From a virus, in IMG/VR virus record IMGVR_UViG_3300035698_018106, positions 38,717 to 102,716 of that record: DNA of 64,000 bases, one strand, 5' to 3'. Shown here one piece after another: positions 9,586 to 55,638 of the stretch; the first letter of the stretch is position 1, and the number at the start of each line of letters is the position of its first letter. The position numbers were made by a program, and so were the translations under genes. Under the pieces are notes generated by a model. That model worked only from the letters and a program-made list of their open reading frames with translations, had not been told where the DNA came from and did no database searches.

Positions 9586-9613
9586 CTAAAAAAGAGGCAC
9601 TTGCCTCTTTTTA
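9586..9613. terminator. Rho-independent terminator
   Basis: AAAAAAGAGGCACTTGCCTCTTTTT hairpin with A and T runs. Confidence 0.65.
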
Positions 9614-11708: not shown

Positions 11709-11752
11709 TTAATGTTTATTTTATATATTCACTATTTAAATATTATATCACT

Positions 11753-11781
11753 AAAAAGGACTCGCGATTCGAGTCCTTTTT
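11753..11781. terminator. Rho-independent terminator, followed on the minus strand by TTTTTAGTGATATAAT
   Basis: GGACTCG-CGATT-CGAGTCC hairpin flanked by A5 and T5. Confidence 0.7.
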
Positions 11782-14454: not shown

Positions 14455-15081
14455 TTATGATTCATTCTCTGTATAAGCTAACACTAAATCTGGATAATCC
14501 TTCTTTATGTTAATGGCAATATCTCTTTTAGCTTTTCTTAAGCGAGTTTTAACTGTTGCTGTTTTCATTCCTAAGTCATCAGCAATAGTTTGTAATTGTT
14601 TTTTGTTAACCATTCGTTCAATCATTACTGATTTATATGGTTCTTTTAAATTATTGATAGCTATTACTGACGCATCATATAATTCTTGGATAAGATCTTC
14701 ACCAGTTGGACCTATTACTTCTGTTTCAAATTCATATAATGGTGAATTTTTCTGGAGAGTTTTTGAATGGTTTTGAGATAATCTATCATGAGAAACAGAT
14801 TTATTCATCGCATGAATTTGTCCTAGAGCTTCGTTTTTTGCAATTGCATAAACCCATGTAGAAAAATTATATTTAGAATTATATTGTTCGATTTTTTCCC
14901 AAACTGAAATAAAAGTTTGAGATATTACTTCATTAATTATATCAATATCTTGAATATATTTATATGCAAATGTTAATAAACCAGGTTTCATCCTATCAAT
15001 TAATTCAGTAAATGAATGATTGTCTTTTCTTTCTATAAAATTTAATGCTATACTTTGTATTGATTGATTTCTTTTTTTCAT
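14455..15081 (-). CDS. RNA polymerase sigma factor, sigma-70 family (ECF-like)
   Basis: Region-2-like FSTWVYAIAKNEAL. Region 4.2 helix-turn-helix QLQTIADDLGMKTATVKTRLRKAKRDI. Confidence 0.7.
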   Translation of the reverse strand: MKKRNQSIQSIALNFIERKDNHSFTELIDRMKPGLLTFAYKYIQDIDIINEVISQTFISVWEKIEQYNSKYNFSTWVYAIAKNEALGQIHAMNKSVSHDRLSQNHSKTLQKNSPLYEFETEVIGPTGEDLIQELYDASVIAINNLKEPYKSVMIERMVNKKQLQTIADDLGMKTATVKTRLRKAKRDIAINIKKDYPDLVLAYTENES

Positions 15082-17524: not shown

Positions 17525-17719
17525 AATATGATTTTATTTTATATATTTAAAAAATTGGCTCACACTAAGGCAGTGAGCCATTCTCCAGGAAATATTAACC
17601 TCTTAGGCTGCCATTTCCATTTCACTTAATTTGCCATTTAAAGCAGTTTTACAAAGTTAATCACTAATATATTCAATATCCGGTCAATACCAGGTCAGGC
17701 CCATATGTTGAAAAAATAA

Positions 17720-21352: not shown

Positions 21353-21700
21353 TTATAAGTTATAGATAGCATGGTGACTAATAGATATCTTAGATGACTT
21401 TGGCATATGTCCATATAATTTTCTCCAACCTTTAGCAAAGCCATTTTTTATAACCTGTGTATAATAAGCGAATGCATTTTGTGATTTCGCTGGATCATAT
21501 CCTCTCCAATATTGAAAACAATCCATGATAGCTACTGAAATACAATCTTCTTTATCTTCAGAATATACATAAGTTAATTTATTAGCGAATTTTCTAGACA
21601 TTAATATTAACATATCTAGTGCTACCGGTGTCAATTCATCTAATTCTTTAGATTTAAGTATCTCTTCTCTTAAATCGCGATTTTTTACATGGTGTGCCAT
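21353..21700 (-). CDS. Late-transcription sigma factor, T4 gp55-like
   Basis: LDMLILMSRKFANKLTYVYS and QNAFAYYTQVIKNGFAKGWRK parallel gp55 [20 protein letters not shown] and [23 protein letters not shown]. Confidence 0.5.
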   Translation of the reverse strand: MAHHVKNRDLREEILKSKELDELTPVALDMLILMSRKFANKLTYVYSEDKEDCISVAIMDCFQYWRGYDPAKSQNAFAYYTQVIKNGFAKGWRKLYGHMPKSSKISISHHAIYNL

Positions 21701-21821
21701 ATTTTATTTTTTAATTTAATCTTAACAACTATTTGTTTTTTATTATGATTTTTTTGGTTAATTTTATATGTGAATAACATTTGCAACAACACTTATAAAA
21801 TTAGATATAATTATTATATCA

Positions 21822-21852
21822 CAAAAAGCGCCACAAGTTTTGAGGCGCTTTA
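21822..21852. terminator. GC-rich hairpin terminator, followed on the minus strand by TTTTTGTGATATAAT
   Basis: AGCGCCACAAG-TTT-TGAGGCGCT hairpin. Confidence 0.6.
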
Positions 21853-21874
21853 AATATTTAATTATTAATGAGAA

Positions 21875-22158: not shown

Positions 22159-22653
22159 TTATTTTTTTTGTTGAGAAACACTAATCTTATGTTTTAGTGA
22201 TATATCTTCATTTTCTTCTTTAAATTCTTCTAATTCTTTAGGTATATATGCCTTTTTAATTTTATCAAAAGATTCATTTAAAATTGTGATATATTCTAAT
22301 ATATCGCCTGTATTCTCTCCTCCTTTTCTAAGTAGAATATCAAATTTTTTGTTTGTATTTTCATTTAATTCTCCTACTAAAGTGTAAATATTATCTAAAT
22401 ACAATATTACACCATTATTATATTCTGTTTGGAAATCTTGGAATGTTTCAAAATTATTAATCAACTTATATGTTGATTCAATAGATCGTTCTATTTCAGC
22501 TAATTCAACTTTTTGACTTTTGGTCACTTTATTTGCAAATAACAAATAACTAAGCATTATTATAACAGAAACCACCAAAATATATTTTAGTGGTTTAGGC
22601 GTTTTTTCATAGAAATTATTTAAATTAAATTTGTCTAATGGTATTATTCCCAT
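22159..22653 (-). CDS. Membrane-anchored protein
   Basis: One N-terminal transmembrane helix. Confidence 0.35.
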   Translation of the reverse strand: MGIIPLDKFNLNNFYEKTPKPLKYILVVSVIIMLSYLLFANKVTKSQKVELAEIERSIESTYKLINNFETFQDFQTEYNNGVILYLDNIYTLVGELNENTNKKFDILLRKGGENTGDILEYITILNESFDKIKKAYIPKELEEFKEENEDISLKHKISVSQQKK

Positions 22654-22710: not shown

Positions 22711-25551
22711 TTAAACACTTAATGTTTTAACTAAAGCTATAGGTGCAGCAGAGAATTCTTGTTCCTGTCCAGAACCTTTTATGATTCTAACTTCTGCCGA
22801 ATCTCCAATACCTGCTGTATAATCAATAATATTAACTAAAATATTTTCTATTGCTTCACCTGATTCTTCATCTATTAATACGCCTTCTGTATAATTGTCC
22901 GGATTTGCAAAATCATTAACATCTTCAAATATTCTAATACGTTCTTTAGGTAATATCGACGATCTTCCTTCTATTATAACTCTTATTGGACTATCATTTT
23001 TAGCTTCTTCCCATTCATTAAACATAACGAAACAATCATTAGTTTTAACAGGTGTCGAACCCATATATATTCCACATTTAACGTATTGTTCAAATAATGT
23101 CTTTGTAGTTAAATTTTGCAATGTTTTTTTATCAAATTCAAAAGGTGGTTTTACTAAAGGCTCTGGCTTTTCATGAGCACCTTTTATTTTTGAAGGATTT
23201 GCTTTTATAGTAGATCCTTGTACTTGAACAATAAAATCACCATCACTGGTTTGACTTATTATAGATCCTTTATTTTTATCTATAATTACATCATCTCCTA
23301 GTTGAAGATCTTCTTTTAATTGTTTAGTGTTTTTTTTTCCATTGACAGATTCTACAACTTTCTTTTTAAGGAATATTCTTGGAGCATTTGGAGCTTTTTC
23401 TTTGGCTTCAACATCTTCAACTTCAGCATCTCCACCATCAGATTTTTCTAAATCAGATTTTTCTAATTCTTCAGGTGCTATTGAATTTGGCTCGGCTTCT
23501 AATTCTTCACCTTCAACTTCTAAAGCTTCATCATCATTATCTCCTTCTTCAGATATATCTTTATTAGGATCATAACTTTCTCCTTCAGCTTCATCAGTGG
23601 CTTCTTCATCTTCATCTTCATCTTTTAAACCTAACTCATCATCTTCGGCTCCATCTTCGGCAGCTACATCTAGATTTTCTTCATCTGTATCTTCACTACC
23701 TTCGGTGCCTAAATCAGTTTCTTCGGAATCATCCCCTTCAGTTCCTTCAGTTCCTTCATCTTCAGTTCCTTCATCTTCCTCGGCATCTGAAGCAGCTTCG
23801 GCAGCATCAGCGGTTGCTTCAACATTATCAACTCCTAAATCTACTTCATCAGCTTGCATAGATGGAGAATCACCTAATAATTCAGATTGATCATCGTCAA
23901 ATGTAATTTGACTTGCTGGTTCTGTTTCCATATTCTCAGCACCTATAACAGTACCTGCTGTTTGATCGGTTGTTTCTCCTTTGGCAGTAGAACTTGGTTC
24001 TGGGATTGGAACAGTATATTTTTGCCCATCAACATCAATAGTTACAGTTGTACCTTCTGATACTTCAGTATATTTCTCAATATGATTAACATAATCTTTA
24101 TATTCAGTTTTAACATCAGCTAATTCTTCTTTTAATATAGAAATTACGTCAGTAGATGCAGAATTATCAATATTATTAAATTGATCAATCTTTTCATTTA
24201 ATGATCTTATGTAATCTAAATATCCTTTTTTAGTTTCATCAATTTGAGCTAATATTTTAGTTTTATTTGGTAAAATATCTGCAAATGTTTTTGAAACATC
24301 AAAATGCATATGTTCATTCATTATCTTTTCAGCCTGTATAGGATTGATATTTCTAAAGAATGTTGCTTTGTTATTATTTGGATCAAATGTTGAAATGAAT
24401 ATATTGTTGCGCAATTTAATAATATCTGCAGCATGAGATTCATCTAGTTTCATATAAACTCTTTTAGCAAAATCTATTTCAACTATTTCATCAAAATTAG
24501 TTTTTAATCTTTCGGCTAACATAAAGAAATTAGTATTTCCTGTCCATTGTGAAAGTTCAGTTGCATCCTTTAATTCGGTCTCATTCATTACATGTGTATT
24601 GATTTCAACAGAATTTTCATTAATAACTGCCTTATCATTCCCAATATATAATGTTATGTCATTTTTAGAAATTTCAACGTTTGGTAAGTTAACAGCTTCA
24701 CATAATGATTTAAAATTTTCATCTAATCCAGCAGCTTGATTTTTTTTGAGTTTATTAACATTATTACCTTTTTTAACATAAAAAGTACCTTTAACATTAA
24801 ATACTACTTCATTTTCTCCTAAATACATAAGTGGGGAAAATACTTTTTCAATAGCAACTTCAGTATTTGCATATTCTAATTGCAAATCCTTAGCATCTGT
24901 CATCACAATATTAATAATATCGTGAATAAAAGGATCATAACTAAATTTAACTAAAGTTTCTTTTAAAATACTTTTAGTTTGTTCAGATTTTTCGGCTAAA
25001 TATTTATTAACAACATCTTCAATAAGAGGTAAAAGATAACTACTCTTAGTTGATTTCATGGTTTCGATTATCTTAGTGATATCGATATCATTTTTATATT
25101 TTGTTGCTTTTTCTGAAAGAGTTTGTATTTGTTTTGAAACATCAGGCATCCAAGTATATTCAGATGATAACACATTAATAAATTCTTCATATATTAAAAC
25201 TTCTGGATACTGATTAACTTTTTCTTCAAAATGTTCTAATATACCTGAAAGAGTTTCATCATTCTTTGCATCACTTTCTTTAAGACTATTAATAGCCTTT
25301 CTTACACCTATGTTCTTAATTGAAAAAAGACGTTTTTCGTTATCTAACCACTCTGATATTAAATCATCAGTTGGATGTTTTTCTAATCCTTCAAAAAGAT
25401 TTTCTAAAGCTACTCTCTCTATTTCAAATCTTGCTTCTGGGGTTACGCTATTATAAATTGCAGAACTCATAGCTGCTATAGTAGTTTCACAAAGTGATTT
25501 TACTTGCCCTATAGTAGTTGTTCTTTTAAGTTTATTAATTTTTGCTATCAT
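22711..25551 (-). CDS. Large virion-associated protein with a ~170-aa poly-acidic low-complexity region
   Basis: 946 aa. The central D/E/G/T-rich tract (DEGTEDEGTEGTEGDDSEE...) is encoded by repetitive gaa/gat DNA. CATAAATATATAAT sits upstream. Confidence 0.45.
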   Translation of the reverse strand: MIAKINKLKRTTTIGQVKSLCETTIAAMSSAIYNSVTPEARFEIERVALENLFEGLEKHPTDDLISEWLDNEKRLFSIKNIGVRKAINSLKESDAKNDETLSGILEHFEEKVNQYPEVLIYEEFINVLSSEYTWMPDVSKQIQTLSEKATKYKNDIDITKIIETMKSTKSSYLLPLIEDVVNKYLAEKSEQTKSILKETLVKFSYDPFIHDIINIVMTDAKDLQLEYANTEVAIEKVFSPLMYLGENEVVFNVKGTFYVKKGNNVNKLKKNQAAGLDENFKSLCEAVNLPNVEISKNDITLYIGNDKAVINENSVEINTHVMNETELKDATELSQWTGNTNFFMLAERLKTNFDEIVEIDFAKRVYMKLDESHAADIIKLRNNIFISTFDPNNNKATFFRNINPIQAEKIMNEHMHFDVSKTFADILPNKTKILAQIDETKKGYLDYIRSLNEKIDQFNNIDNSASTDVISILKEELADVKTEYKDYVNHIEKYTEVSEGTTVTIDVDGQKYTVPIPEPSSTAKGETTDQTAGTVIGAENMETEPASQITFDDDQSELLGDSPSMQADEVDLGVDNVEATADAAEAASDAEEDEGTEDEGTEGTEGDDSEETDLGTEGSEDTDEENLDVAAEDGAEDDELGLKDEDEDEEATDEAEGESYDPNKDISEEGDNDDEALEVEGEELEAEPNSIAPEELEKSDLEKSDGGDAEVEDVEAKEKAPNAPRIFLKKKVVESVNGKKNTKQLKEDLQLGDDVIIDKNKGSIISQTSDGDFIVQVQGSTIKANPSKIKGAHEKPEPLVKPPFEFDKKTLQNLTTKTLFEQYVKCGIYMGSTPVKTNDCFVMFNEWEEAKNDSPIRVIIEGRSSILPKERIRIFEDVNDFANPDNYTEGVLIDEESGEAIENILVNIIDYTAGIGDSAEVRIIKGSGQEQEFSAAPIALVKTLSV

Positions 25552-25629: not shown

Positions 25630-27000
25630 TTAGACTATCTTTAAATTTTTTATTACACCAAACACATCATTATTCACACTATTTGCTATATGAAGATCAA
25701 TTTCCTTATAGTTAATACTTCCTGGAAATATTATACTAGCATCAGGTGTAACCCAGACAGGATTTGATGGATCTATCTTATAATGTTTTATGTTTATAAA
25801 TATTTCATTATCTTTTGTGTATATTTTTCTATTTTCATCATCTGTCATTTCTAATATTATTCCAATACTTGTATCTTCTAATGGACCTGCTGATGTAGTA
25901 AAATAGCCGGCGTCATTTAAACTAGTATCTGTTGTATCAAAATACCCTTCATTTAATATCATAAAGGATTCAGATGTAATTTTTTTGGTATTTAAATCTG
26001 GAATTATTGATATAGAAGGAGTTCTATATACTTTTACAGAACTAGTTTCTTCCCATGTTATAATTGGTTCTTTAAAATCTGTAAATGTATCAGGGATATC
26101 CCATATCCAATATTCATGATTTTCAATACCTTTTTCAATAATATTCCACTCATTTGTATTTGAATATAACCAATAAGCATCAACTTTAGCTAATACTCCG
26201 TTTTCTCTTGTGAAATTCCATTCAATCATCAATGGATACGATTTTGGGATAGTTAGTCCAGAACTTGGAGATTTAATTTCTATTTTGCCATCATTTTTCT
26301 CATCATGATCATAGATTCTATAACCTATACTTTTCATTGTATTATCTGCCGACATTTCTGTAGTTGGATCAAATACAGGTTGATATGTTTCTGCTTCTAT
26401 AGTAAAAGTGATCTTAATTCTATTATCAGTCTCAAATGAATATTCTATTAACTTATCTATTAAGATGTCCTCAGAGAAGCCTGCAGTGCACCCTAGCCGC
26501 ATCCCTTTATAATATACATAAAACGTTTTTGTCTTATAAAAAACCTCGCGGATGGCTTGTTCAATTTTTAATGCAGTTGTATGTGTATCAATCCACATTT
26601 CACAATCAAACTTAATAGTAAGAGGTATTGAATATAAAAATGATACAAATGAATTAAGGTGTCCATCTGTTTCTTTAACATAACGTCCTTGTACAAATCT
26701 GTTAGTTATCCGTGTAGCATCAATATTTGCACCAGTATAAGTTATAACACCCCTAGGTATTCTATCAAAATTACCATCAACAGGCTTAGGAAATTTACAA
26801 TCAGCATAATGAGTATAAAAATCTTGCATAAATCTTTCATCACCAGATTGATTATAATACCATGGCACTTCTACTTTTTCTACTTCTTTATTAGACCATA
26901 CTTGATTGTATTTAATCTGATTGTTGAGAATATCTAACATACCGGCAATTACAGCCCTAGATATTAAATCCTCATTATTATAAGTGTTATATAACGACAT
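25630..27000 (-). CDS. Putative structural protein
   Basis: 456 aa. An ATAGATATATAATAAAA motif lies upstream. Confidence 0.35.
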   Translation of the reverse strand: MSLYNTYNNEDLISRAVIAGMLDILNNQIKYNQVWSNKEVEKVEVPWYYNQSGDERFMQDFYTHYADCKFPKPVDGNFDRIPRGVITYTGANIDATRITNRFVQGRYVKETDGHLNSFVSFLYSIPLTIKFDCEMWIDTHTTALKIEQAIREVFYKTKTFYVYYKGMRLGCTAGFSEDILIDKLIEYSFETDNRIKITFTIEAETYQPVFDPTTEMSADNTMKSIGYRIYDHDEKNDGKIEIKSPSSGLTIPKSYPLMIEWNFTRENGVLAKVDAYWLYSNTNEWNIIEKGIENHEYWIWDIPDTFTDFKEPIITWEETSSVKVYRTPSISIIPDLNTKKITSESFMILNEGYFDTTDTSLNDAGYFTTSAGPLEDTSIGIILEMTDDENRKIYTKDNEIFINIKHYKIDPSNPVWVTPDASIIFPGSINYKEIDLHIANSVNNDVFGVIKNLKIV

Positions 27001-27054
27001 TGAAATGTTTCTTTTATTATATATCTATATAAAAACAGTATAACGCAGAAAATC

Positions 27055-27825
27055 TTATCTAATAAATTCTCGAATGCCTGAATAATGTATATCTTTATTA
27101 TTATCACGAATTATAAATCGCTTTTTTTCAATTACTATTAATTCTATAATGTCTTTTATTTCATAACTTAAATTTAATGAATCTAATATTTTTTGAATAT
27201 CAAAGTTAACATCATATAAAAATATTCTATCTACATCGATATACAATATATTAGAAGTATATTTATAAATCATTCTTTTAAATACATCTCCTGTATAATT
27301 AGCTATATCTTCTGGACTATCAGCATATATAAAAAAGTCAGATCCTTTATAATTTAAAGCTCCCCATGTATAATTTAATAAAACCTTAAGTAGAAAATAA
27401 GTTTCAGGATTACCATGTTTTTTTACTTCAACTCTTTTATAAAATAAATTTTGAAATAAATTACCGAATTCAAATATATTAAAATTTATTGCATTATTAT
27501 TGATAAGATTTACTAAACTATTTGGATAAAGAGAATTAAATTCAATAACTTTACAGTCTTTATGTATTCTCATCTTAGCTTTATTATTTAACATTACTGT
27601 ACCGCATCGATTAGAATCAATACGTTCTAAATTATTTTGAGTTTTATATCCAGGATAAAATATATCTAATAATTTTTTAATTATCTGATTATAATCAGAT
27701 AAACTGAAACTAGATCCATTTAATTTATTTAAAATAAAGCTAGATCCATTTAATTTATAATCTTTAGTAAAATGGTAAGAATCAAGAACAGAACATAGTT
27801 CTTTAGTGGAAATAATAGTTTTCAT
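27055..27825 (-). CDS. Family B DNA polymerase motif A-like fragment (EFNSLYPNSL) with an internal 30-bp tandem duplication
   Basis: KVIEFNSLYPNSLV matches Pol B motif A (DxxSLYPS), but Glu replaces Asp. KLNGSSF is repeated twice. Confidence 0.35.
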   Translation of the reverse strand: MKTIISTKELCSVLDSYHFTKDYKLNGSSFILNKLNGSSFSLSDYNQIIKKLLDIFYPGYKTQNNLERIDSNRCGTVMLNNKAKMRIHKDCKVIEFNSLYPNSLVNLINNNAINFNIFEFGNLFQNLFYKRVEVKKHGNPETYFLLKVLLNYTWGALNYKGSDFFIYADSPEDIANYTGDVFKRMIYKYTSNILYIDVDRIFLYDVNFDIQKILDSLNLSYEIKDIIELIVIEKKRFIIRDNNKDIHYSGIREFIR

Positions 27826-27904
27826 AAGAATTTATCTTTTAATTTTAGGGAAATTATCCCATTTAAAAATTATATGTATGAAATATAAATAAGTTTTATA
27901 TTCT

Positions 27905-29620
27905 TTAATCTTTTACAATTATGCGTTGTAAAAATTCTACAGGAAATGCCTTTCTGTGTTTATGTATTAAATCTGCTAAAGAACCATCTAATATATAAGT
28001 CTTTGCCCAATCATTTTCATTTCTTACACTTCTACCAACTCCTTGTAATATATTTTTGATTGCGACCCATGAATACCAAGCAGGATTAATTTGCATCTTC
28101 GCTTTTACAAACCTATCACCAAGTGAAAGATATGGAACTTTTGCAAATATAGCAAACCTACTATATTCATCTTTAAGATCTAAACCTTCTAATAAGCTAG
28201 GACCTATAAGTACTTTAGATTTGTCATTCATTAACATACTAAGCACTTTTCTTTTTTCTTCGGCGCCTTCATATACTAAAACTCTCCTTTTATTTTTTTC
28301 AGAAAGCCCATTATGAATTTTCATTGTTAACGCATATGAAGCAGTATGTATTATACCATTTTCAGTAGTATGATCATCTAAAATTTCATCTATTTTATCA
28401 CAAACCCATGGTAGATTAGCATCTAGATGTTTATACGACATTCTTCTTTTATTATAAAAATATATTGGAGATTTACTATAATCAAAAGTATTTGCAATTT
28501 TTATATATTTAGCTTTATTTAAAGCTATTCCTTTTAAATAAACGGCTGGATCTCCAAAAGTAGCACTCATCAATACTGTAAATCCAGTATGCTCATGAAA
28601 ATATTTATTCATCATATAACTCTCTTCTAAACAATTAAATACAATTGCTTTTTCTCCTTGAGGATTTTTTATAATATTGTTAGTAGAAGTTTGATCTATA
28701 ATTTCAACATAATCTTCTATTTTACAATGAACATCCTTTAACCAATCACATATTTTTAGTGCTTTTCTCCATTCTTTGGGAGGATCATCTTTAGGATATT
28801 CTTCTTTAATAGTATCTTTTAATGTTTCTATAGCTGGTTTATATTCTTCTAATAATAATTCCATCTCACTTAATGCTTTAAAAAGATCATCTTGGTCTTC
28901 AAATTTAAATAAAGATTTAGTAACAACTTTTATAGAATGTACAGTTTTACTTAAATCTTTAATTTTATATAAATTAAAGAAATCAGTTAATTCTTCTAAT
29001 TTATCTAAAAAATGATCATCAAATCTAGGTGAATAATGATTTTGAACAATATCTAATATTTTATGAGCTTCATCACAAATAGTAAAAGCTCTAGATGGAA
29101 ACAATTGATGTTCTTCATCCATATGTTGATTAGTATAATTCTGCATTATCAACCAATACGCATAATTTAATAATGAGGTTTGAGATCCAGATGCTTTATC
29201 TCTTGCCATAAAATATGGACATTCATCATAACAATGCATGGCTCTAGGTTTTTTATTTCGCATTCGGCAAGTTCCCAGCGAATTCTTTTCCATATTATCA
29301 ATACACTTATAATTATCAATACCTTTTATAGAACCCCAATTAAATCTTCCTTTTCTAAAATCAGATTCATATTGTTCCTGTAATGCGATGTCAGATGCTA
29401 ATATATAACCATCCTTACCTTTTTTATTAAGAATATATGATATTGCTAATCCTATAATGGATTTACCACTACCAACAGGGGCATCTAATATAACAGTGCC
29501 CACACCATTATCATAAGCTTCAATTATGTTTATAACTGCCTCTTTTTGTCCTATTCTCCATACAAAGCCTTTATCCATAAAAACTTCTACGAATTCTTCT
29601 AATTGTTTATTTACGTCCAT
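27905..29620 (-). CDS. DinG/XPD (Rad3)-like DEAH helicase with an Fe-S cysteine cluster
   Basis: Walker A DAPVGSGKS, CDEAHK (DEAH box) and a four-cysteine cluster (C..C..C..C) between them. Confidence 0.7.
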   Translation of the reverse strand: MDVNKQLEEFVEVFMDKGFVWRIGQKEAVINIIEAYDNGVGTVILDAPVGSGKSIIGLAISYILNKKGKDGYILASDIALQEQYESDFRKGRFNWGSIKGIDNYKCIDNMEKNSLGTCRMRNKKPRAMHCYDECPYFMARDKASGSQTSLLNYAYWLIMQNYTNQHMDEEHQLFPSRAFTICDEAHKILDIVQNHYSPRFDDHFLDKLEELTDFFNLYKIKDLSKTVHSIKVVTKSLFKFEDQDDLFKALSEMELLLEEYKPAIETLKDTIKEEYPKDDPPKEWRKALKICDWLKDVHCKIEDYVEIIDQTSTNNIIKNPQGEKAIVFNCLEESYMMNKYFHEHTGFTVLMSATFGDPAVYLKGIALNKAKYIKIANTFDYSKSPIYFYNKRRMSYKHLDANLPWVCDKIDEILDDHTTENGIIHTASYALTMKIHNGLSEKNKRRVLVYEGAEEKRKVLSMLMNDKSKVLIGPSLLEGLDLKDEYSRFAIFAKVPYLSLGDRFVKAKMQINPAWYSWVAIKNILQGVGRSVRNENDWAKTYILDGSLADLIHKHRKAFPVEFLQRIIVKD

Positions 29621-29639
29621 GTATTTATTATGACAAAAA

Positions 29640-29675
29640 AAGACTGAAGTTTCCTTCAGTCTTTTTATTAATTTT
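29640..29675. terminator. Terminator-plus-promoter-like cassette
   Basis: ATGACAAAAAAA-GACTGAAG-TTTCC-CTTCAGTC-TTTTT. The minus strand continues TTTTTTTGTCATAATAAATAC and then ATG. Confidence 0.65.
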
Positions 29676-29698
29676 TATATTTTAAACTTAAATTTTTA

Positions 29699-29857
29699 TT
29701 GTCTTGATCCTTTTTTAATTTGAAATACTATCCATTCAGGTTTTTGTAATGCTTCTTCTAAAGCTTGTTCATGAACACCATCCCATGTAGAAGTCTGAAA
29801 ATCATCTAAGATAATCTCAGCAAAAACTTCCCATTGGTCCAGGAGATCCTCCTCCAT
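29699..29857 (-). CDS. Possible small ORF (53 aa), absent from the ORF track
   Basis: MEEDLLDQWEVFAEIILDDF...KKGSRQ. Occupies an otherwise empty 190-bp gap. Confidence 0.2.
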
Positions 29858-29870
29858 ATTCTTTTAAAGA

Positions 29871-30395
29871 TTACTGTAGTATTCCATTAACATAGCTAGC
29901 AACTGTTTGATTAGAATCAAACCAATCTTCTACCCTATAACTATCACTTCCAATCTTATTAACATGTTGAATAATTCCTGGATCTTCTTTTGTTATAATT
30001 ATAGCTTCTTCTTTTGCTGCTTTTAATTCTTCAGATTCACCTTCAAATTCATTATATTCATTAAGAACATCACTAACTATTTTTGCTTCCATTACCATAT
30101 CTTTTTTTTCAATTGTATCATTAACATTATCCATTCCAACTTTATTCCAATAATTGGGATCATCTAATTCATCTCTTCTAATATTATAGAAAAAAGTTAA
30201 AGCTAATCTTGCTTTATTATCAGGAAGTTTTTTTATAACTAAATTATAAATTTCTTCTAACTCTCTTTCATCTGAAACATCTTCAAAATATTCATCGTAA
30301 TAATATGCATATAGTGCCCAAAATTCTGTATAATCTGGTACATTAGTAGGATCTATTCCATAATATTCAAATAATCTTTTTAAATTTCTTTTCAT
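29871..30395 (-). CDS. Hypothetical protein
   Basis: 174 aa ORF. Confidence 0.4.
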   Translation of the reverse strand: MKRNLKRLFEYYGIDPTNVPDYTEFWALYAYYYDEYFEDVSDERELEEIYNLVIKKLPDNKARLALTFFYNIRRDELDDPNYWNKVGMDNVNDTIEKKDMVMEAKIVSDVLNEYNEFEGESEELKAAKEEAIIITKEDPGIIQHVNKIGSDSYRVEDWFDSNQTVASYVNGILQ

Positions 30396-30748
30396 TATTT
30401 AGATGATTCTATTAGAATATTTTTAGTTAAAACTTTTTTAACTCCAGTTTGTGTTTTAAAAAGATAATAAGACCCTTCACCCATTTTAGCGATTGGTTTC
30501 CCTTCTACGGTTTCCCCTGATTCTTTATTCTTAAATATTAAAATATCTCTATTAAATTCAGGAGAAAGTAATTCATTATCAATTATAGTCGAAACTCTTT
30601 TTGACATTCCTAGATTTATTGCATTTGTTGGATCAACATCTTCTACATCATTAGAATCCGGATTATAATCATCTGGCATATCTCCAGCCATATAGTCTCT
30701 TTCATTAGATTCTTTTAGACTTTCTGCAACAAATTTTATTTTTTTCAT
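30395..30748 (-). CDS. Hypothetical protein
   Basis: 117 aa ORF. Confidence 0.4.
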   Translation of the reverse strand: MKKIKFVAESLKESNERDYMAGDMPDDYNPDSNDVEDVDPTNAINLGMSKRVSTIIDNELLSPEFNRDILIFKNKESGETVEGKPIAKMGEGSYYLFKTQTGVKKVLTKNILIESSK

Positions 30749-30757
30749 AACTTTATA

Positions 30758-31420
30758 TTATTTTATTTCTTCGACATTATAAATTATCCCTTTTTTTACA
30801 TACTGATGTAAAACATCATTAACCTTATCTACGGAAGCTTTAGGATCTTTTATAATTATTCTTCTTATTCCATTTGCGTTAACCCCTGGTAATAATTCAA
30901 CACCATCAAAAAATTGATCTAATAAAGAATCTACTGATGTACGAGATTTATATAACACTAGTATCTCTACTACATCTGTTTCAGAATTTTCATATTGTGC
31001 ATTAGCTAAAACATAATCTCCATTTCTTTGATTCATAAACATATTTTCATGTAATGATTCTGAAACTAAAGTGTCTGATGAATACACAAATGTATCAATA
31101 CCTGCTGTAACATCTTCTGAACTACAAAAAGCTGAAATTTTAATTTCATTTCCATCTTTAAGTGCAATATTTATAAAATCATTAACACCATCGAATTCTT
31201 CTTGTATAGTATGTATACGTTTACCTTGTAATTCTTCTTCAGACAATGATCCAAAGTCAACATCTAGTTGACCAACACCTTTATCTCCATTAGGATATGC
31301 AGTAATATTAAGTTTACCACCTTCCTTAAAGTTAATTATGATAAATGAGTTTTTACCATCTGAACTTTCTTTAATGTCCTTTATTGTTTTGCCTTCTAAT
31401 CTCTTTAAATCATTCATCAA
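30758..31420 (-). CDS. Hypothetical protein
   Basis: 220 aa ORF. Confidence 0.4.
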   Translation of the reverse strand: MMNDLKRLEGKTIKDIKESSDGKNSFIIINFKEGGKLNITAYPNGDKGVGQLDVDFGSLSEEELQGKRIHTIQEEFDGVNDFINIALKDGNEIKISAFCSSEDVTAGIDTFVYSSDTLVSESLHENMFMNQRNGDYVLANAQYENSETDVVEILVLYKSRTSVDSLLDQFFDGVELLPGVNANGIRRIIIKDPKASVDKVNDVLHQYVKKGIIYNVEEIK

Positions 31421-31451
31421 ATAGATATTTTTATTATATATTCTTTATAAT

Positions 31452-33152
31452 TTAATCTTCTTTATCTAAATCATTAACCTCTATATCACTAAACCCTGTA
31501 TTTTTAGAAATAGTTACTGCATAATCAAAATGTTCTATTGGTAAAGGTGAATGATTAATAATGAAAATATTAATATTCATTTCTTTAGAAATTTTCTGTA
31601 ATAACCCTATAATATCATAGATGCCATCACCATCAATTGATGATAATACTTCATCGAGCATAAATATATTCAATAAAGGATATTTTCTTTTTAACATTCT
31701 AATAATAGAAATTAATACAGCTAAATCAACTCGTTTCTTTTCTCCTGTACTTAGCGTATCAACACTAATTTCTAATCCTAATTGAAATAATTGGGGTTCA
31801 AAATCAGTATCAAAACTCAATGCATAAGGAAAATGTAATTCATTTAATGTATATTCAATTTCTTTATTTAAAGTCGGAAGATAACTCTCTAAGATTTTCT
31901 TTTTAACTCCTGTATCTGCATATATTTCTTCTAGTATTGCCAAATATTTATGGTCATCATCATATTTAACTTTATCTGTTTCTTTAGAAGCTAATTGTTT
32001 AGTGTTTTTATTTATAATATTTCTAATACTACTAAATTCCTTAGGTTTATTAACTTTTAGACGTGTTAATTCTGATTCTAATGTTTTGAAAGCAGATTCA
32101 TATTGGATTATAAATTCATTAATCTTGTTAATTCCTTTATCTAATTTATTAAAAGCAACGCTATAAGTTTTTTCGTTTCCATTAATAGTTTCTAAATTAT
32201 TATTTTTTGATATTATATCGCTTTTTAATTTCTCTTTAACTGAGTCAAATCTTGTATCAGAAAAAGTGGTTTCGCATGTTGGACATTTATCCTTATCATA
32301 TAAATTTATTTGTCTATTAATTTGTGCAATTTCTTGTATAATTTTAGTTTTTTGCTGAATGAAAATATTATAAGACTCTGTTATTTCTTGTTTTTTACTT
32401 ATATATGTATTCCGCTTATTATAACCATCTTGCAACTTAGGTTTATATTCAGTTAATTTTTTTGATATTTGAGATATTTTTTCTATATTATCATTTTTAA
32501 CTTGTTTTTCTAACTTAGCTAATTCTTTTACAGCTGAATTTATATTTCCTTTTAATGATATTATTTCTCTATCAAATAATGTCATATTAACTTTTATATC
32601 TCTTAAGTCGTGTTTAACAAGATTATTCATCTTATTAATTATTTCCATTGCAAATAATTTATTAATAATAATTCTTTTATCATGAGGAGTCATTGAAATA
32701 AAAGATTTAAAATCATTTACAGATAAAGATATAATATTAGAGAAAATATGATAAGGCAATCCTGTAACTTCTGAATCTATATAATTTTGATAATTAGCTA
32801 TACCACTTTTACCAATATTATTATCTTCTGATGGTTCTTCTCCTGGGGCGTATTTATAAACAGTTAAATCCATTGGAGATATCTTCCGTTCTATAGTAAC
32901 ATCGGTTGTAGGATTAACAGATATATCCATTTTAATATATCCGTGTTTATTCATTCTATTAGAAATTTCATCTTTTTTGAATCGATCTAATTTTCCATAA
33001 TAACCGATTTTTGGTAAATTAACAAAAAAGGATTTGCCATGTCCATTTTTACCGGATACCATCCATAATCCACCAGATGCCGGCAGGTCTATAGTTTGTA
33101 ATTTATTACCAAATGGACCTATATTCTTCCACTCTATTTTATTAATTCTCAT
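31452..33152 (-). CDS. Recombination endonuclease ATPase subunit, SbcC/Rad50-like (T4 gp46-like)
   Basis: Walker A GKNGHGKS, a central coiled coil, signature LSTGEKKR and Walker B/D-loop MLDEVLSSID. Confidence 0.8.
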   Translation of the reverse strand: MRINKIEWKNIGPFGNKLQTIDLPASGGLWMVSGKNGHGKSFFVNLPKIGYYGKLDRFKKDEISNRMNKHGYIKMDISVNPTTDVTIERKISPMDLTVYKYAPGEEPSEDNNIGKSGIANYQNYIDSEVTGLPYHIFSNIISLSVNDFKSFISMTPHDKRIIINKLFAMEIINKMNNLVKHDLRDIKVNMTLFDREIISLKGNINSAVKELAKLEKQVKNDNIEKISQISKKLTEYKPKLQDGYNKRNTYISKKQEITESYNIFIQQKTKIIQEIAQINRQINLYDKDKCPTCETTFSDTRFDSVKEKLKSDIISKNNNLETINGNEKTYSVAFNKLDKGINKINEFIIQYESAFKTLESELTRLKVNKPKEFSSIRNIINKNTKQLASKETDKVKYDDDHKYLAILEEIYADTGVKKKILESYLPTLNKEIEYTLNELHFPYALSFDTDFEPQLFQLGLEISVDTLSTGEKKRVDLAVLISIIRMLKRKYPLLNIFMLDEVLSSIDGDGIYDIIGLLQKISKEMNINIFIINHSPLPIEHFDYAVTISKNTGFSDIEVNDLDKED

Positions 33153-33676
33153 ATTTTACTTATGATAAGTTCTTTAATTTCATTAACAGATTCCCTTTCA
33201 GGTTTGATTCGATATATATTATAGCAATATGTATTAACGATTTTGTTTATTTTTTCATCTATTGTTATAGCCTCAACATGAGATTGCATTCTTCCATTCA
33301 CTGAATATCTATGAATTCTATCCAATACAATGTTTATAGAGTCAAATTTATTATGGAGATCTAGTACCATATCTTTATAAGGAGCCGATTCCTTTTGGCC
33401 ATAATATAATCCAAGTAAAAGAGGAGAATCTGTAACGATAACATCAACTTTGCCTGATAATCTAAATAATCTATGATACTGATTTGCCGTTACATATAAT
33501 TGGTTATCTAAAATTTTTGTAGAGCCTTCCCATATCTTATCTTTTACATATTCAGGAGCCATTTCACATTCTACACCGTACATCTTTAATTCATAAAATA
33601 AACCTGCCATGAATGTACTTTTTCCAACTCCTGGACCTGCAAAGATATTTACTAACAATGTGTTTTTATTTACCAT
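33149..33676 (-). CDS. P-loop NTPase, kinase-like
   Basis: NIFAGPGVGKSTF Walker A. Confidence 0.4.
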   Translation of the reverse strand: MVNKNTLLVNIFAGPGVGKSTFMAGLFYELKMYGVECEMAPEYVKDKIWEGSTKILDNQLYVTANQYHRLFRLSGKVDVIVTDSPLLLGLYYGQKESAPYKDMVLDLHNKFDSINIVLDRIHRYSVNGRMQSHVEAITIDEKINKIVNTYCYNIYRIKPERESVNEIKELIISKI

Positions 33677-33882
33677 TTATTTCCTAATATTACTTTATTT
33701 CCTAATATTACTCTATCGACAAATTGATAAATTATAGATGCTTCTTTTCCTTTTGTATTTCTACATAATTCTTTAACTCCCTCATTACCACCTTCTTTAT
33801 ATGATTCTTCAATCATATCTATAAAACTTTGTTTTTCTTCTTTTTGAAAAATAATCTTTTTAATTTTCTGTAATTTATTCAT
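33670..33882 (-). CDS. Hypothetical protein
   Basis: 70 aa ORF. Confidence 0.3.
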   Translation of the reverse strand: MNKLQKIKKIIFQKEEKQSFIDMIEESYKEGGNEGVKELCRNTKGKEASIIYQFVDRVILGNKVILGNKW

Positions 33883-34162
33883 TTCTATATTTTTTTGTTT
33901 CGTTTAACATAAGTCTTGCTAGTATAATTCCATCCATCATATTAGTTAGTGATGTATAATATAATGGTTTTCCAGAATCATCTAATCTAGATAATTCTTT
34001 AGATTCTTTATCCCATTCATTTATAGTTTTTCCTGAATACACATAAGTTTCTATATATCTAATATCTTCTTCTGAATATTCATTTTTATATAATTCTCTT
34101 ACTGCCGAAAATTGTTCAGAATATAATACTCTTTCACCTCTAATTGGCTTAATATTTTTCAT
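33875..34162 (-). CDS. Hypothetical protein
   Basis: 95 aa ORF. Confidence 0.3.
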   Translation of the reverse strand: MKNIKPIRGERVLYSEQFSAVRELYKNEYSEEDIRYIETYVYSGKTINEWDKESKELSRLDDSGKPLYYTSLTNMMDGIILARLMLNETKKYRNE

Positions 34163-35847: not shown

Positions 35848-35876
35848 ATAAATTGTTTATACATTATATAAAAAAA

Positions 35877-35908
35877 TGGCCGAAAGGTTTTAACCTTTGG
35901 GCCATTTT
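35877..35908. terminator. Terminator hairpin, followed on the minus strand by TTTTTTTATATAATG
   Basis: TGGCCGAAAGGTT-TTAA-CCTTTGGGCCA. Confidence 0.65.
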
Positions 35909-35927
35909 AAAGTATTCTTAATATTTT

Positions 35928-36317: not shown

Positions 36318-36338
36318 TATACTATTTTATTTTATATA

Positions 36339-36812
36339 TTAAAATAGTTTTTTTGTCTTTATTCTATTTTCCATTTTATTTTTTGCAACAAAATCTCTTA
36401 ATACTAATTCCTGATCTAATACACCTATACCCTTATATAATTGATCATAATTAAGTTGGAAACATTCAGCGAAACTTATAAATATTTCAACCGGACTATA
36501 TTCACCGGTTCCACAACGTTCCTTGAAATAATAATACATATTTATCATATCTGTTTTATCAACCCTTTTTGGATTCTTATACTTTTTATGATAAGGAGAA
36601 TTCTTAAATATTTCATAGATTTTTTCATTAAGAATATGTAAAGTTCTATGTTCTATTACATCTCCTAATTGATCATCATATAAACTAGATACTCTACTAT
36701 CTATTTTAATAGATTGAGTAAATTCTTGAAATTGCATTTCCCCTGAATTAAAGGAATTATTTATTATTTTATCTTCAGCCATATTATAATCTTCTTTATT
36801 GTTTAAATTCAT
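36339..36812 (-). CDS. Hypothetical protein
   Basis: 157 aa ORF. Confidence 0.4.
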   Translation of the reverse strand: MNLNNKEDYNMAEDKIINNSFNSGEMQFQEFTQSIKIDSRVSSLYDDQLGDVIEHRTLHILNEKIYEIFKNSPYHKKYKNPKRVDKTDMINMYYYFKERCGTGEYSPVEIFISFAECFQLNYDQLYKGIGVLDQELVLRDFVAKNKMENRIKTKKLF

Positions 36813-38340: not shown

Positions 38341-38408
38341 AACGATATATGTTTTATATGTTTTATATGTTTAAAGTTTATATGTGATATTAATATTAAG
38401 ATTTCAAT

Positions 38409-38681: not shown

Positions 38682-38699
38682 ATATGTTTATTCTTTATA

Positions 38700-38738
38700 A
38701 TGACAAAAAAGGCTAGAGTTTTCTCTAGCCTTTTTAAA
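38700..38738. terminator. Terminator-plus-promoter-like cassette
   Basis: ATGACAAAAAA-GGCTAGAG-TTTTC-CTCTAGCC-TTTTT. Compensatory stem changes relative to the 29640 copy. Confidence 0.65.
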
Positions 38739-38781
38739 GTTTGTTAAATTTATTTATTTTATTTTATTTTTAACTTATTTT

Positions 38782-46859: not shown

Positions 46860-46926
46860 GTTGTAATAATTATTTATTGTTTAAATATTATATCAACAAC
46901 ATATTAAAAGGATTCATTTATAACAA

Positions 46927-46951
46927 AAAAAGTCCTAATTTAATAAATTAG
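46927..46951. terminator. Palindromic terminator hairpin, followed on the minus strand by TTTTTTTGTTATAAATG
   Basis: AGTCCTAATTTA-A-TAAATTAGGACT flanked by A7 and T5. Confidence 0.65.
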
Positions 46952-46978
46952 GACTTTTTAATTTTTATTGGATAATAT

Positions 46979-55637: not shown

Positions 55638-55638
55638 A

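Follow-up and report, generated by a model that had tools for sequence, protein, structure and literature searches.

Gene content of the window

The DNA analysed here, called the window throughout, is a stretch of 64,000 nucleotides from an uncultivated large phage (IMG/VR record IMGVR_UViG_3300035698_018106, positions 38,717 to 102,716) with a G+C content of 27.6%. Its T4-type gene set includes a gp55-like sigma factor, UvsX, gp46/47-like SbcCD, topoisomerase II, a gp2-like protein and RNA ligase, and contigs of related T4-related huge phages reach about 405 kb. Megablast of positions 27000-34000 matched nothing among GenBank phages, and an exact-protein lookup of the helicase described below returned no record. 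Comparisons were made with uncultivated relatives (50-84% amino-acid identity). Two large ORFs (22711-25551 and 6-2609) are without any family match. Intergenic gaps are short. A Shine-Dalgarno sequence is present before only 5 of the 74 genes, and A makes up 56% of the 15 nt preceding the ATG, so A/U-rich tracts beside start codons are expected in any case.

The sigma factor genes lie on the minus strand. The one at 14455..15081 encodes a 208-aa ECF-type sigma factor, which matches Pfam Sigma70_r2 (1.9e-11), Sigma70_r4_2 (1.8e-6) and phrog_1740, and scores 70.2 bits against TIGR02937 sigma70-ECF (cutoff 42.9). Its best profile is SigW, with a score under SigW's own cutoff. The gp55-like late sigma gene (21353..21700, 115 aa) matches phrog_234 'late sigma transcription factor' (3e-12) and, weakly, Sigma70_r2. 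Neither an anti-sigma factor nor an autoregulatory arrangement was seen, and no MotA/AsiA-type middle system is apparent within the window.

Intergenic cassettes on the coding strand

The gene for a DinG/XPD-like helicase is preceded by a cassette at 29621..29666 on the minus strand. It comprises an A-run, an 8-bp stem GACTGAAG/CTTCAGTC (29642-29661) with the loop GAAA (29650-29653), AAAC at 29649-29652, a T7 run (29635-29641), GT, CATAAT (29627-29632), AAATAC and the ATG (29618-29620). The coding strand thus reads AAAAA-GACTGAAG-GAAA-CTTCAGTC-TTTTTTT-GTCATAATAAATAC-ATG. The RNA folds at -16.8 kcal/mol (z -5.4), and a covariance model scores the cassette at 67.7 bits in sense versus 22.6 bits in antisense orientation. 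Orthologous cassettes were found in relatives L004, L005, L007/L011, L010, L042 and L219/L220. The cassette at the DnaB operon (38691..38735, minus strand) has the stem GGCTAGAG/CTCTAGCC (38711-38730), the loop AAAA and AAAC at 38718-38721. It continues with a T6 run (38705-38710), TATAAA (38694-38699) separated from AAAC by 18 nt (AAAC-N18), TAAAC and the ATG at 38681, which opens a 90-aa ORF located before DnaB. On the coding strand it reads AAAAA-GGCTAGAG-AAAA-CTCTAGCC-TTTTTT-GTCATTATAAAGAATAAACATAT-ATG, and its orthologs occur in L139/L221, L140/L222, L142/L226, L143/L144/L224/L225, L145/L228, L163/L219 and L227.

These two copies had been singled out by an initial annotation, which located both hairpins correctly on the minus (coding) strand and noted that their stems differ in a base-pair-preserving way. 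The alignment bears this out: 35 of 46 positions are identical, 3 of the 8 stem pairs differ, and all three differences are compensated. The linker TTTTTTGTCAT is common to the two copies in the window and is not kept by all of their own orthologs.

Four further sites that had been cited each proved to consist of a hairpin and a T-run, and two additional ones were found, at 17556-17580 and 9594-9607. The SbcD cassette (35863..35904, minus strand) has an 11-bp hairpin with one internal mismatch (35877-35904; z -5.5) whose loop ends in AAAAC (AAAC at 35887-35890), a T7 run (35870-35876), TATAAT at the AAAC-N18 position (35863-35868), GTATAAAC and the ATG at 35847. Its orthologs (L219/L220, L162, L221, L222, L234/L141 and L223) keep AAAAC-N18-TATAAT and have different stems. 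The cassette at 21813..21848 (minus strand), with the gp55-like late sigma gene directly downstream, combines the stem GCGCC/GGCGC, a loop containing AAAAC (AAAC at 21837-21840), a T5 run (21823-21827), GTGA and TATAAT (21813-21818). This hexamer lies at the AAAC-N18 position and carries an extended -10 TG; the ATG at 21700 is 112 nt downstream.

The cassettes at 46887..46954 and 11720..11776 (both minus strand) each hold a second box. In the former, the hairpin GTCCTAATTT/AAATTAGGAC (46932-46954) is followed by a T7 run and TGTTATAAA (hexamer 46917-46922), then by TGaTATAAT (hexamer 46887-46892) placed 27 nt before the ATG at 46859. The protein encoded downstream (46077-46859) has no relatives in IMG/VR. 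In the latter, the hairpin GGACTCG/CGAGTCC (11758-11776; z -8.5) precedes a T5 run and AGTGA-TATAAT (hexamer 11742-11747), and the second box TATATAAAATAAAC (hexamer 11720-11725) is 11 nt from the ATG at 11708. A distant relative of this cassette (L318) retains the order hairpin, TATATAgAATAAAA, ATG. Behind the permuted tmRNA gene, a terminator hairpin (17556-17580, within 17538..17580, minus strand) is followed by a T6 run, AAA-TATATAAAATAAA (hexamer 17538-17543) and the ATG at 17524. The (G/A)AAAC box is missing from the cassettes at 46954, 11776 and 17580. Finally, the hairpin GAGGC/GCCTC with its T6 run (9588..9607, minus strand) is the sole sense-strand terminator without an adjoining TATAAT-like hexamer, the closest being 12 nt off.

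The hairpins are a conserved RNA structure

The eight sense-strand intergenic hairpins with T-runs in the window all beat shuffled sequence (z -3.2 to -8.5), with fold energies of -12 to -22 kcal/mol. All lie between genes on the coding strand, just past the stop codon of the upstream gene. Their stems contain G+C and span 7-11 bp, their loops measure 3-11 nt, and 4-8 T residues come directly 3' of the stem. No Rfam family matches them.

Covariation was assessed on 14 distinct orthologous or paralogous hairpins. For the pair counts, one loop base was taken out of four sequences to obtain gap-free columns, as MAFFT had gapped the 5' arm. In this alignment 96% of cells pair, both sides have changed in 6 of the 9 pairs, and 27 cells are compensatory (shuffles, 9.1±2.2; slid controls, 0-2). 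The orientation of the structure was examined in 37 distinct hairpins. The sense RNA is the more stable (-10.4 versus -8.7 kcal/mol; 22 cases against 10; Wilcoxon p=0.0011), and G·U pairs number 21 in sense versus 7 in antisense. Moreover, the covariance model gives the sense copies 44-68 bits and the same hairpins read in antisense 21-30 bits. Among orthologs the T-run is invariant, whereas the A-run before the stem varies. As the initial annotation had argued from two copies, the RNA structure of the hairpin is conserved; selection acts on it at the level of RNA. Together with its T-run it looks like an intrinsic terminator, termination being predicted from this architecture.

A TATAAT-like box adjoins the predicted terminators

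TATAAT-like hexamers were defined by at least 5/6 matches to TATAAT and a start between -1 and +5 nt from the end of the T-run. Such a hexamer follows 7 of the 8 terminator T-runs; for the remaining intergenic T-runs the figure is 4 of 20 (Fisher one-sided p=0.0019; binomial p=1.7e-4 for the 7/8 relative to the intergenic background). The coupling of box and hairpin therefore exceeds chance, as had been proposed. TATAAT-like words are common at this base composition, and most such boxes in the window are without a hairpin. TATATAA[AT] is 20 times denser in sense intergenic than in sense coding sequence and lies mostly 7-37 nt from an ATG. A generic sigma-70 promoter scan revealed no excess (152 found versus 151.5 expected), and raw k-mer enrichment gave nothing informative. 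Promoters of the Bacteroidota type (TTTG ... TAnnTTTG) were set aside, all their occurrences being within coding sequence.

The wording of the box needed revision. The motif GT(C/G)AT(A/T)ATAA(T/A) describes the two named copies, but it matches no other intergenic sense-strand site, its one further match being in a coding region. The CATAATAAATA box proposed with it is not conserved in orthologs, in which only TCATAA(A/T)A is retained. When IMG/VR was scanned with YTTTTTTGTCATAAWA, 120 loci were retrieved, of which 5 had a hairpin in front; only L042 is a true ortholog, all remaining loci being unrelated. The extended form GTGATATAAT does occur at 11750 and 21821 as reported. A third TGnTATAAT, at 46895, is not beside a hairpin. 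TG stands one base before the hexamer in 5 of the 8 window cassettes (29621, 46921, 11753, 21822 and 38690), 38690 being counted only if its hexamer is read as CATTAT and not as the AAAC-N18 hexamer TATAAA.

The distance from the box to the start codon is variable. It had been given as 10-40 nt, which is correct for the cassettes at 38690, 35861 and 11753 but not for those at 29621 (6 nt), 46921 (57 nt) and 21822 (112 nt). The predicted 5' UTRs would mostly be just 0-10 nt long, which is unusual, and three cassettes place the box 33-112 nt from the ATG.

A bipartite AAAC-N18-TATAAW motif as the probable promoter core

The initial description lacked a feature that is shared by three cassette families: (G/A)AAAC, conserved on the 3' side of the loop and placed exactly 18 nt upstream of TATAA(T/A). 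The (G/A)AAAC is invariant in these families and is also kept by distant orthologs that have no hairpin. In the window alone AAAC-N18-TATAAW occurs 5 times, which is not above chance (2.67±1.7 expected; 17 of 100 shuffles reach 5), so that the case for a -35-like box is made by the relatives. In 119 related loci (737 kb) the motif was found in 82 unique sequences forming 7 clusters of at least 3 members, compared with 11 unique sequences on the antisense strand. Other AAAC spacers gave 0-1 clusters, except N17 with 5. Control words gave 0-4 clusters, and TAAA reached 6-7 at N20/N21, a peak that we read as the same motif seen as TAAAAC. Only multi-member clusters were counted, since singletons are noisy (ACAA-N16 yields 24 clusters, all of them chance occurrences in coding sequence).

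The cassettes of the orthologs of the gp55-like gene come in 21 distinct versions with unrelated stems and an invariant AAAC, N18 and TATAA(A/T); conservation of 80% or more is confined to AAAC, the 18-nt spacing and TATAA. Folded singly, 14 of 15 of these cassettes have z ≤ -2.3. RNAalifold returned no consensus structure for 17 of them, whose stems are offset by 1-2 columns when the sequences are aligned on the fixed AAAC. In orthologs farther removed (L310-L315) cgAAAC-N18-TATAAT persists, and the hairpin is absent. The motif likewise exists without a terminator in the window, as AAAC-N18-TATAAT at 27869..27896 (minus strand) lies in the gap upstream of ORF 27055-27825. Furthermore, orthologs differ in the distance from hexamer to ATG (DnaB, 12 or 16 nt; SbcD, 15, 16 or 20 nt) while that from AAAC to the hexamer is fixed, a pattern that suits a signal for transcription better than one for translation. 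The conserved promoter core thus looks like (G/A)AAAC-N18-TATAA(T/A), with AAAC within the hairpin loop.

The helicase copy has an unusual geometry

In the helicase cassette CATAAT is 6 nt from the ATG, and the hexamer in register with AAAC, TAATAA, is only 4 nt from it. A transcript begun from the in-register hexamer would have lost the start codon. Either the helicase mRNA would be leaderless, or there is no promoter at this site. The position of TCATAA(A/T)A relative to the ATG (8 nt, then ATG) is the same in every one of the 7 helicase orthologs, and T-runs of different length move it by 1 nt relative to AAAC. With a hexamer just 4-6 nt from the ATG, the copy that first drew attention is the least clear promoter candidate.

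The cassettes are inherited at syntenic junctions

The cassettes before the helicase, the DnaB operon, SbcD and the gp55-like gene occupy the same syntenic junctions in many uncultivated relatives. No cassette-bounded indels were seen in these relatives, and there was no sign of shuffling. Within the replication module the cassettes have been passed on vertically, each at its syntenic junction. The cassette that the initial annotation read as a modular terminator-promoter unit does recur at such junctions, and both the conserved hairpin and its coupling to a promoter-like element withstood the computational tests that were run. The promoter core, however, would be (G/A)AAAC-N18-TATAA(T/A), TGn being present in some copies only.

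Proposed overlap of terminator and promoter

We consider the cassette to be a compact transcription-unit boundary in which an intrinsic terminator is overlapped with the promoter of the downstream gene, and assign this reading a probability of about 0.6. Transcription of the upstream gene would be stopped by the hairpin and its U-tract, acting as an intrinsic, Rho-independent terminator. In its fullest form, represented by the DnaB-operon, SbcD and gp55-like sigma cassettes, the unit would also hold a two-part promoter: a -35-like box (G/A)AAAC(T/C)TT at the 3' side of the loop, an 18-nt spacer made of the 3' arm and the T-run, and TATAA(T/A) as the -10 box. The DnaB and SbcD cassettes have, 2-3 nt past the -10 box, a TAAAC that resembles a start site. 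The same ~45 bp would then be read twice, as RNA that halts the incoming polymerase and as DNA that recruits polymerase for the next unit. That AAAC-N18 is fixed, and kept even where the hairpin is lacking, is the reason why the unit looks like a bipartite promoter overlapped with a terminator. The copies at 46954 and 11776 would have merely a TGn-extended -10 box right behind the T-run, and the helicase copy may give a leaderless or near-leaderless mRNA or serve chiefly as a terminator or attenuator. Termination and initiation themselves, like the transcript start sites, we infer from the sequence.

The strongest competitor, though a good deal less probable, is that the hairpin is only a terminator, an attenuator or a stabiliser of the mRNA 3' end, while the conserved U-tract and A/U-rich box would together form an unstructured translation-initiation region for a downstream gene that has no Shine-Dalgarno sequence and is transcribed by read-through. 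This is most plausible for the helicase copy, given the TCATAA(A/T)A locked to the ATG in all 7 orthologs and the in-register hexamer too close to the start codon, and the rarity of Shine-Dalgarno sequences and the A-rich composition before the ATG make such tracts expected. It accounts poorly for the DnaB, SbcD and gp55-like boxes, which are fixed relative to AAAC (18 nt) and variable relative to the ATG (12-20 and 112 nt), for the bipartite motif found without a hairpin (27869-27896; L310-L315), and for the three cassettes with a box far upstream of the start codon.

It is rather improbable that two independent, ordinary signals have merely become adjacent through tight packing, with a -10-only promoter and a loop AAAC kept for RNA reasons. 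Short intergenic gaps, the AAAC-N18 count of the window and the cassettes devoid of AAAC are in keeping with such an origin; GAAA, moreover, is a stable tetraloop of the GNRA type. However, the AAAC-N18 spacing holds across loops of 4-11 nt and 3' arms of 5-10 nt, and also in hairpin-less promoters, and the box abuts the T-run in the cassettes at 46954, 11776 and 21848 despite ample room before the ATG.

An element acting as DNA, either an operator palindrome for a dimeric protein or a recombination substrate shuffling modules in the manner of the PeSLs of T4-type phages, seems very unlikely. The two window copies are similar enough, with their shared linker, that gene conversion could be invoked, and PeSLs do recombine (PMC2839356). 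Against this, the stems differ within one genome and covary, so that the shape and not the sequence of half-sites is conserved; the G·U pairs favour sense-strand RNA, and the cassettes, rather than flanking orphan genes, are found at stable, syntenic core-gene junctions.

Promoters of phage N4 have 5-7-bp stems and 3-nt loops close to the start, and are used by a phage single-subunit polymerase. A hairpin-form promoter of this kind, extruded from the DNA and read by a phage RNA polymerase as by the N4 virion RNA polymerase, can be practically dismissed even though a conserved loop sequence lies at a fixed distance from a start-proximal box and the two family-less large ORFs leave room for such an enzyme, because the stems (7-11 bp), loops (4-11 nt) and position of the hairpin (about 22-41 nt upstream of the predicted start) differ from those of N4, every hairpin leads into a canonical U-tract, the boxes persist in relatives that lack the hairpin, and no N4-like polymerase was detected in the window.

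Comparison with known regulatory elements

PeSLs are the closest analogue. Like the cassettes they are small intergenic elements, repeated in the genome, that join a terminator stem-loop to the promoter of the next gene. They measure about 100 bp, with a stem-loop upstream of an AT-rich UP region, sigma-70 -35 and -10 boxes and a Shine-Dalgarno sequence at the end; they are concentrated in hyperplastic regions, near orphan genes, and bring about recombination and the formation of minicircles (Arbiol et al. 2010, PMC2839356; Comeau et al. 2014, PMC4122927). The cassettes described here differ in having no TTGACA-like -35 box, the region 17 bp upstream of the hexamer being the hairpin loop with AAAAC(T/C), and no Shine-Dalgarno sequence in any copy. 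They also lie at stable syntenic junctions of core replication genes, not in hyperplastic regions. Plain intrinsic terminators have the same stem-loop and T-run past a stop codon, but need neither the loop AAAC nor a fixed distance to TATAAW, both of which the cassettes conserve.

Among extended -10 promoters (TGnTATAAT), the window offers TGaTATAAT at 11742-11750, 21813-21821 and 46887-46895, and TGtCATAAT and TGtTATAAA directly behind T-runs. In many orthologs, however, TG is absent or unconserved (ta-TATAAT for SbcD; ca/at-TATAAA for DnaB), and as an upstream signal AAAC-N18 is conserved more faithfully than TG. T4 late promoters (TATAAATA) depend on gp55; a gp55-like sigma is present here, and another recurrent box, ATATATAAAATAAA, is similar to the T4 late one. 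The T4 late promoter was rejected as a cassette element: of the sense intergenic sites just 3 have exact TATAAATA, and none of these is in a cassette. Since the genes downstream of the cassettes are replication genes and the gp55-like gene itself, the cassettes would fall into a temporal class that precedes the late promoters.

ECF (group IV) promoters typically have AAC in the -35 region, as in the sigma-W/V-type tGAAACnTTTt of B. subtilis, and CGT-type -10 boxes (CGTA for sigma-W/V) after spacers of 14-17 bp (PMC5758882). The cassettes share AAC followed by T residues, but their -10 box is TATAA(T/A), 18 nt after the C, in a housekeeping-like geometry. No CGT-type -10 box was found at a fixed position, TGT/CGT shifting in position among orthologs. 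Because the phage encodes an ECF-type sigma factor and AAC is a hallmark of ECF -35 boxes, the product of 14455-15081 is a candidate reader of the (G/A)AAAC box, the candidates for the box-reading sigma being this factor or the host primary sigma.

Implications for T4-related huge phages

Taken jointly, these elements might represent a clade-wide 'middle' promoter class of T4-related huge phages, in which the ECF-type sigma reads an AAAC embedded in the terminator loop; we put this forward tentatively, as a possibility well short of an even chance. If it were true, transcription of the replication genes and of the gp55-like late sigma gene would start from promoters of this class, in a cascade from host sigma to ECF sigma to gp55-like sigma, and the mRNAs would have very short leaders or none, consistent with the missing Shine-Dalgarno sequences. 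It would suggest that the phage's own ECF-type sigma might time the replication and late-sigma genes without a MotA/AsiA-type system in the window. The predicted short or absent leaders also bear on how mRNAs devoid of Shine-Dalgarno sequences are translated.

The cassettes extend the PeSL idea and do not overturn current understanding; they would be a more condensed form of a regulatory design already known from phages. A -35 box placed in a terminator loop would be unusually economical, and an insulate-and-restart unit of ~45 bp could interest synthetic biologists. Finally, AAAC-N18-TATAAW laid over a terminator provides a testable grammar for a widespread uncultured clade, and could serve to delimit its transcription units and temporal classes straight from metagenomic contigs.

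Intergenic hairpin cassettes on the minus strand

The intergenic cassettes, each consisting of a hairpin, a T-run and a TATAAT-like hexamer on the coding strand, are a real and conserved feature of this genome. The two copies named in the initial annotation, upstream of the helicase gene (29621-29680) and of the DnaB operon (38690-38740), match their description: an A-run, an 8-bp stem, a GAAA or AAAA tetraloop (coding strand), 6-7 T and GTCAT. Three stem pairs differ between them, and all three changes are compensated. The four other sites cited there, upstream of SbcD (35861-35910), upstream of the gp55-like sigma factor gene (21822-21870), at 46921-46975 and at 11753-11800, are likewise intergenic hairpins with a T-run on the coding strand, as are two further sites (17556-17580 and 9594-9607). 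All eight hairpins fold far better than shuffled sequence.

A hexamer with at least 5/6 match to TATAAT, starting -1 to +5 nt from the T-run end, follows 7/8 cassette T-runs compared to 4/20 other intergenic T-runs (p=0.0019). The boxes are thus commoner after hairpins than elsewhere, the reverse of what the initial annotation had named as fatal to its proposal. TATAAT-like boxes are, beyond the cassettes, the general upstream motif of the genome: within the window, TATATAA[AT] reaches 3.96/kb in sense intergenic DNA versus 0.19/kb in sense coding DNA, and most of its 19 intergenic sites lack a hairpin. Two further details of the initial annotation are loose. Among intergenic sense-strand sites, only the two named copies match GTSATWATAAW as a literal consensus, and the distance to the ATG, first put at 10-40 nt, ranges from 6 to 112 nt.

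A separate minus-strand hairpin at 22572-22593 (CCACTAAAA-tata-TTTTGGTGG, then TTTCTGTTATAAT, a perfect TGnTATAAT) lies within ORF 22159-22653, 60 nt past its annotated start. This could represent an internal cassette or point to a misplaced ORF start.

Conservation at gene junctions

Loci from uncultivated relatives were retrieved with the helicase, DnaB, SbcD and gp55-like proteins. Cassettes occur at the same junctions and gene order is conserved. The helicase cassette is kept in L004, L005, L007/L011, L010, L042 and L219/L220 (63-73% amino-acid identity), where it comprises an 8-bp stem, a GAAA/AAAA loop, 6-7 T, (G/A)TCATAA(A/T)A, 6 nt and the ATG, with stems that vary among orthologs (GACTTAAG, AGCTTAAG, GCCTTAAG, GACCTAAG); it is absent from the more distant loci retrieved by the helicase protein. 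The DnaB-operon cassette has 7 distinct orthologs. For SbcD, at least 6 orthologs were found at 71-75% identity and none at 61-67% among loci retrieved by this protein. The gp55-like gene cassette exists in 21 distinct versions with unrelated stems.

The hairpin as an RNA structure

Fourteen distinct helicase and DnaB hairpins were aligned without gaps after removal of one loop base from 4 of them. In this alignment 96% of cells pair, both-side changes occur at 6/9 pairs, and 27 compensatory cells are observed, compared to 9.1±2.2 in shuffled alignments and 0-2 after sliding of the 3′ partner. Of 15 hairpins located upstream of the gp55-like gene, 14 have z ≤ -2.3. A comparison of 37 distinct hairpins gave greater stability for the sense RNA (-10.4 kcal/mol, versus -8.7 kcal/mol for the antisense RNA; Wilcoxon p=0.0011), which contains 21 G·U pairs versus 7. 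The T-run is invariant whereas the upstream A-run is variable, and scores from a covariance model are 44-68 bits for sense copies but 21-30 bits for antisense copies. The pairing, the compensatory changes and the greater sense stability bear out the conserved RNA structure originally proposed. Taken together, covariation, strand asymmetry, the invariant T-run and the covariance-model scores point to a hairpin that would act on the coding-strand transcript as an intrinsic terminator, and argue against a symmetric DNA site.

A two-part element overlapping the loop

Loops vary from 4 to 11 nt, yet their 3′ side reads (G/A)AAAC in every aligned cassette. Exactly 18 nt (N18) separate the C of this motif from TATAA(T/A) in the window DnaB, SbcD and gp55-like cassettes and in all their orthologs. 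In 119 related loci totalling 737 kb, AAAC-Nx-TATAAW shows a sharp maximum at x=18, with 82 unique sequences and 7 clusters of at least 3 members; other spacers give 0-1 such clusters, apart from N17 with 5. Control words give 0-4, except TAAA at N20/N21 (6-7), which in our interpretation picks up the AAAC motif in the form TAAAAC. On the antisense strand of these loci, 11 unique AAAC-N18-TATAAW sequences were counted. Since the count in the window alone is not above chance, the AAAC element rests on the comparative data. Many N18 sites are hairpin-free (e.g. 27869-27896 in the window), and L310-L315, which carry the most divergent gp55-like orthologs, retain cgAAAC-N18-TATAAT without a surrounding hairpin.

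While the AAAC-to-hexamer distance is fixed, that from the hexamer to the ATG differs between orthologs, being 12 or 16 nt in DnaB cassettes and 15, 16 or 20 nt in SbcD cassettes. Judged from these spacings, the loop AAAC and TATAA(T/A) would fit a two-part promoter rather than a ribosome-binding signal. TAAAC lies 2-3 nt after the hexamer in the DnaB and SbcD cassettes, at the expected start-site position. Directly 5′ of the DnaB ATG, three tandem TATAAA(A) boxes are found at 38341-38385 (minus strand; cacaTATAAActttaaacaTATAAAAcaTATAAAAcatatatcgttATG), one of which reads AAAC-N17-TATAAA.

The helicase copy is the one that fits the promoter model least well. In one register, AAAC is 15-16 nt from CATAA(T/A), itself 6 nt from the ATG, so transcription would begin at the A of the start codon and the helicase mRNA would be leaderless. 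In the other, AAAC is 17-18 nt from TAA(A/T)A(A/T), itself 4 nt from the ATG, and a transcript beginning at the corresponding position would lack the start codon. In 7/7 orthologs the box keeps a fixed distance to the ATG, which would be compatible with a leaderless mRNA as well as with a function of the box in initiating translation of read-through transcripts.

Genomic context

The window has a G+C content of 27.6%, and almost all genes from ~6947 onward lie on the minus strand. A Shine-Dalgarno sequence (GGAG, GAGG or AGGA) precedes only 5/74 of the minus-strand genes, and A makes up 56% of the 15 nt preceding the ATG. Many of the TATAAW boxes of minus-strand genes end just 7-15 nt before an ATG, predicting very short leaders.

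A T4-like replication and recombination module encodes SbcC, SbcD, DnaB, UvsX, a DNA polymerase fragment, both topoisomerase II subunits and a DinG/XPD-like helicase (27905-29620, minus strand). Portal, head-closure, gp2-like, RNA ligase, CCA-adding enzyme and PhoH genes are also present. The best UvsX matches among annotated phages come from Prevotella Lak megaphages, with amino-acid identities of just 40-42%; closer relatives are represented solely by uncultivated IMG/VR and JGI contigs, some >400 kb. In L219 (469-3400), the DnaB ortholog is split into two blastx segments ~1.4 kb apart, which suggests an intein, intron or homing-endonuclease insertion. Five large ORFs (434-946 aa) have no significant match: 22711-25551, 25630-27000 and 6-2609 against Pfam and PHROG, and 7863-9527 and 10024-11328 against Pfam only at a relaxed threshold, the sole sub-threshold match being Pentapeptide_4 for 7863-9527.

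A permuted (two-piece) tmRNA (Rfam RF04321) was detected at 17603-17783 (minus strand; 67 bits, gathering score 47, E 1e-10). It lies in a 399-nt gap between genes of the phage genome; ARAGORN made no call there. TATATAAT boxes starting at 17822 and 17904 lie 5′ of it, and the terminator at 17556-17580 follows it. The RNA ligase and CCA-adding tRNA nucleotidyltransferase genes are close together (58134-59231 and 60169-61389, minus strand) on the same contig, and with the tmRNA they possibly form an RNA-repair toolkit.

The plus- and minus-strand gene blocks converge at a hairpin (6914-6933, GGAGAATC-ttaa-GATTCTCC) that is flanked by an A-run and a T-run and resembles a bidirectional terminator. 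At 55584-55615, TCGAAACACCTGAT-tata-ATCAGGTGTTTCGA forms a perfect 14-bp inverted repeat, with no T-run after it on the coding strand, that falls within coding sequence or at its edge (ORFs 55296-55763 and 55639-56022).

Candidate sigma factors

The window encodes an ECF-type sigma factor (14455-15081, minus strand; TIGR02937, 70 bits; best-matching profile SigW) and a 115-aa gp55-like late sigma factor (21353-21700, minus strand; phrog_234, 3e-12). The Bacteroidota-type promoter (TTTG ... TAnnTTTG) was not found in intergenic DNA. An AAC in the -35 region is typical of ECF promoters, with tGAAACnTTTt as the sequence of the sigma-W/V type (PMC5758882); the cassette box (G/A)AAAC(T/C)TT resembles it. 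However, a TATAAW -10 box and an 18-nt spacing are atypical for ECF promoters, and the phage ECF-type factor is a tentative, rather doubtful candidate reader of the AAAC box.

Another recurrent box, (A)ATATATAAAATAAA, occurs 0-13 nt 5′ of ATGs in nearly identical copies (41665-41677, 36329-36341, 17536-17548 and 11718-11730; 4047-4061 on the plus strand) and is conserved in relatives (L001:213-226, L012, L010:1090-1103, L222). It may be a late promoter read by the gp55-like factor.

Comparison with PeSL cassettes

The most likely role of the cassette, to which we assign a probability of about 0.6, would be that of an overlapped terminator-promoter unit. The closest known system is the promoter-early stem-loop (PeSL) of T4-type phages, in which a terminator is combined with an early promoter (PMC2839356, PMC4122927), and the predicted function is the same. 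Unlike PeSLs, the window cassettes have neither a canonical -35 box or UP region 3′ of the stem-loop nor a Shine-Dalgarno sequence, and they lie outside hyperplastic regions around orphan genes. No evidence of shuffling, a PeSL feature, was found for them. The -35-like box overlapping the predicted terminator loop, together with vertical inheritance at core-gene junctions, sets these cassettes apart from PeSLs as a variant of that design.
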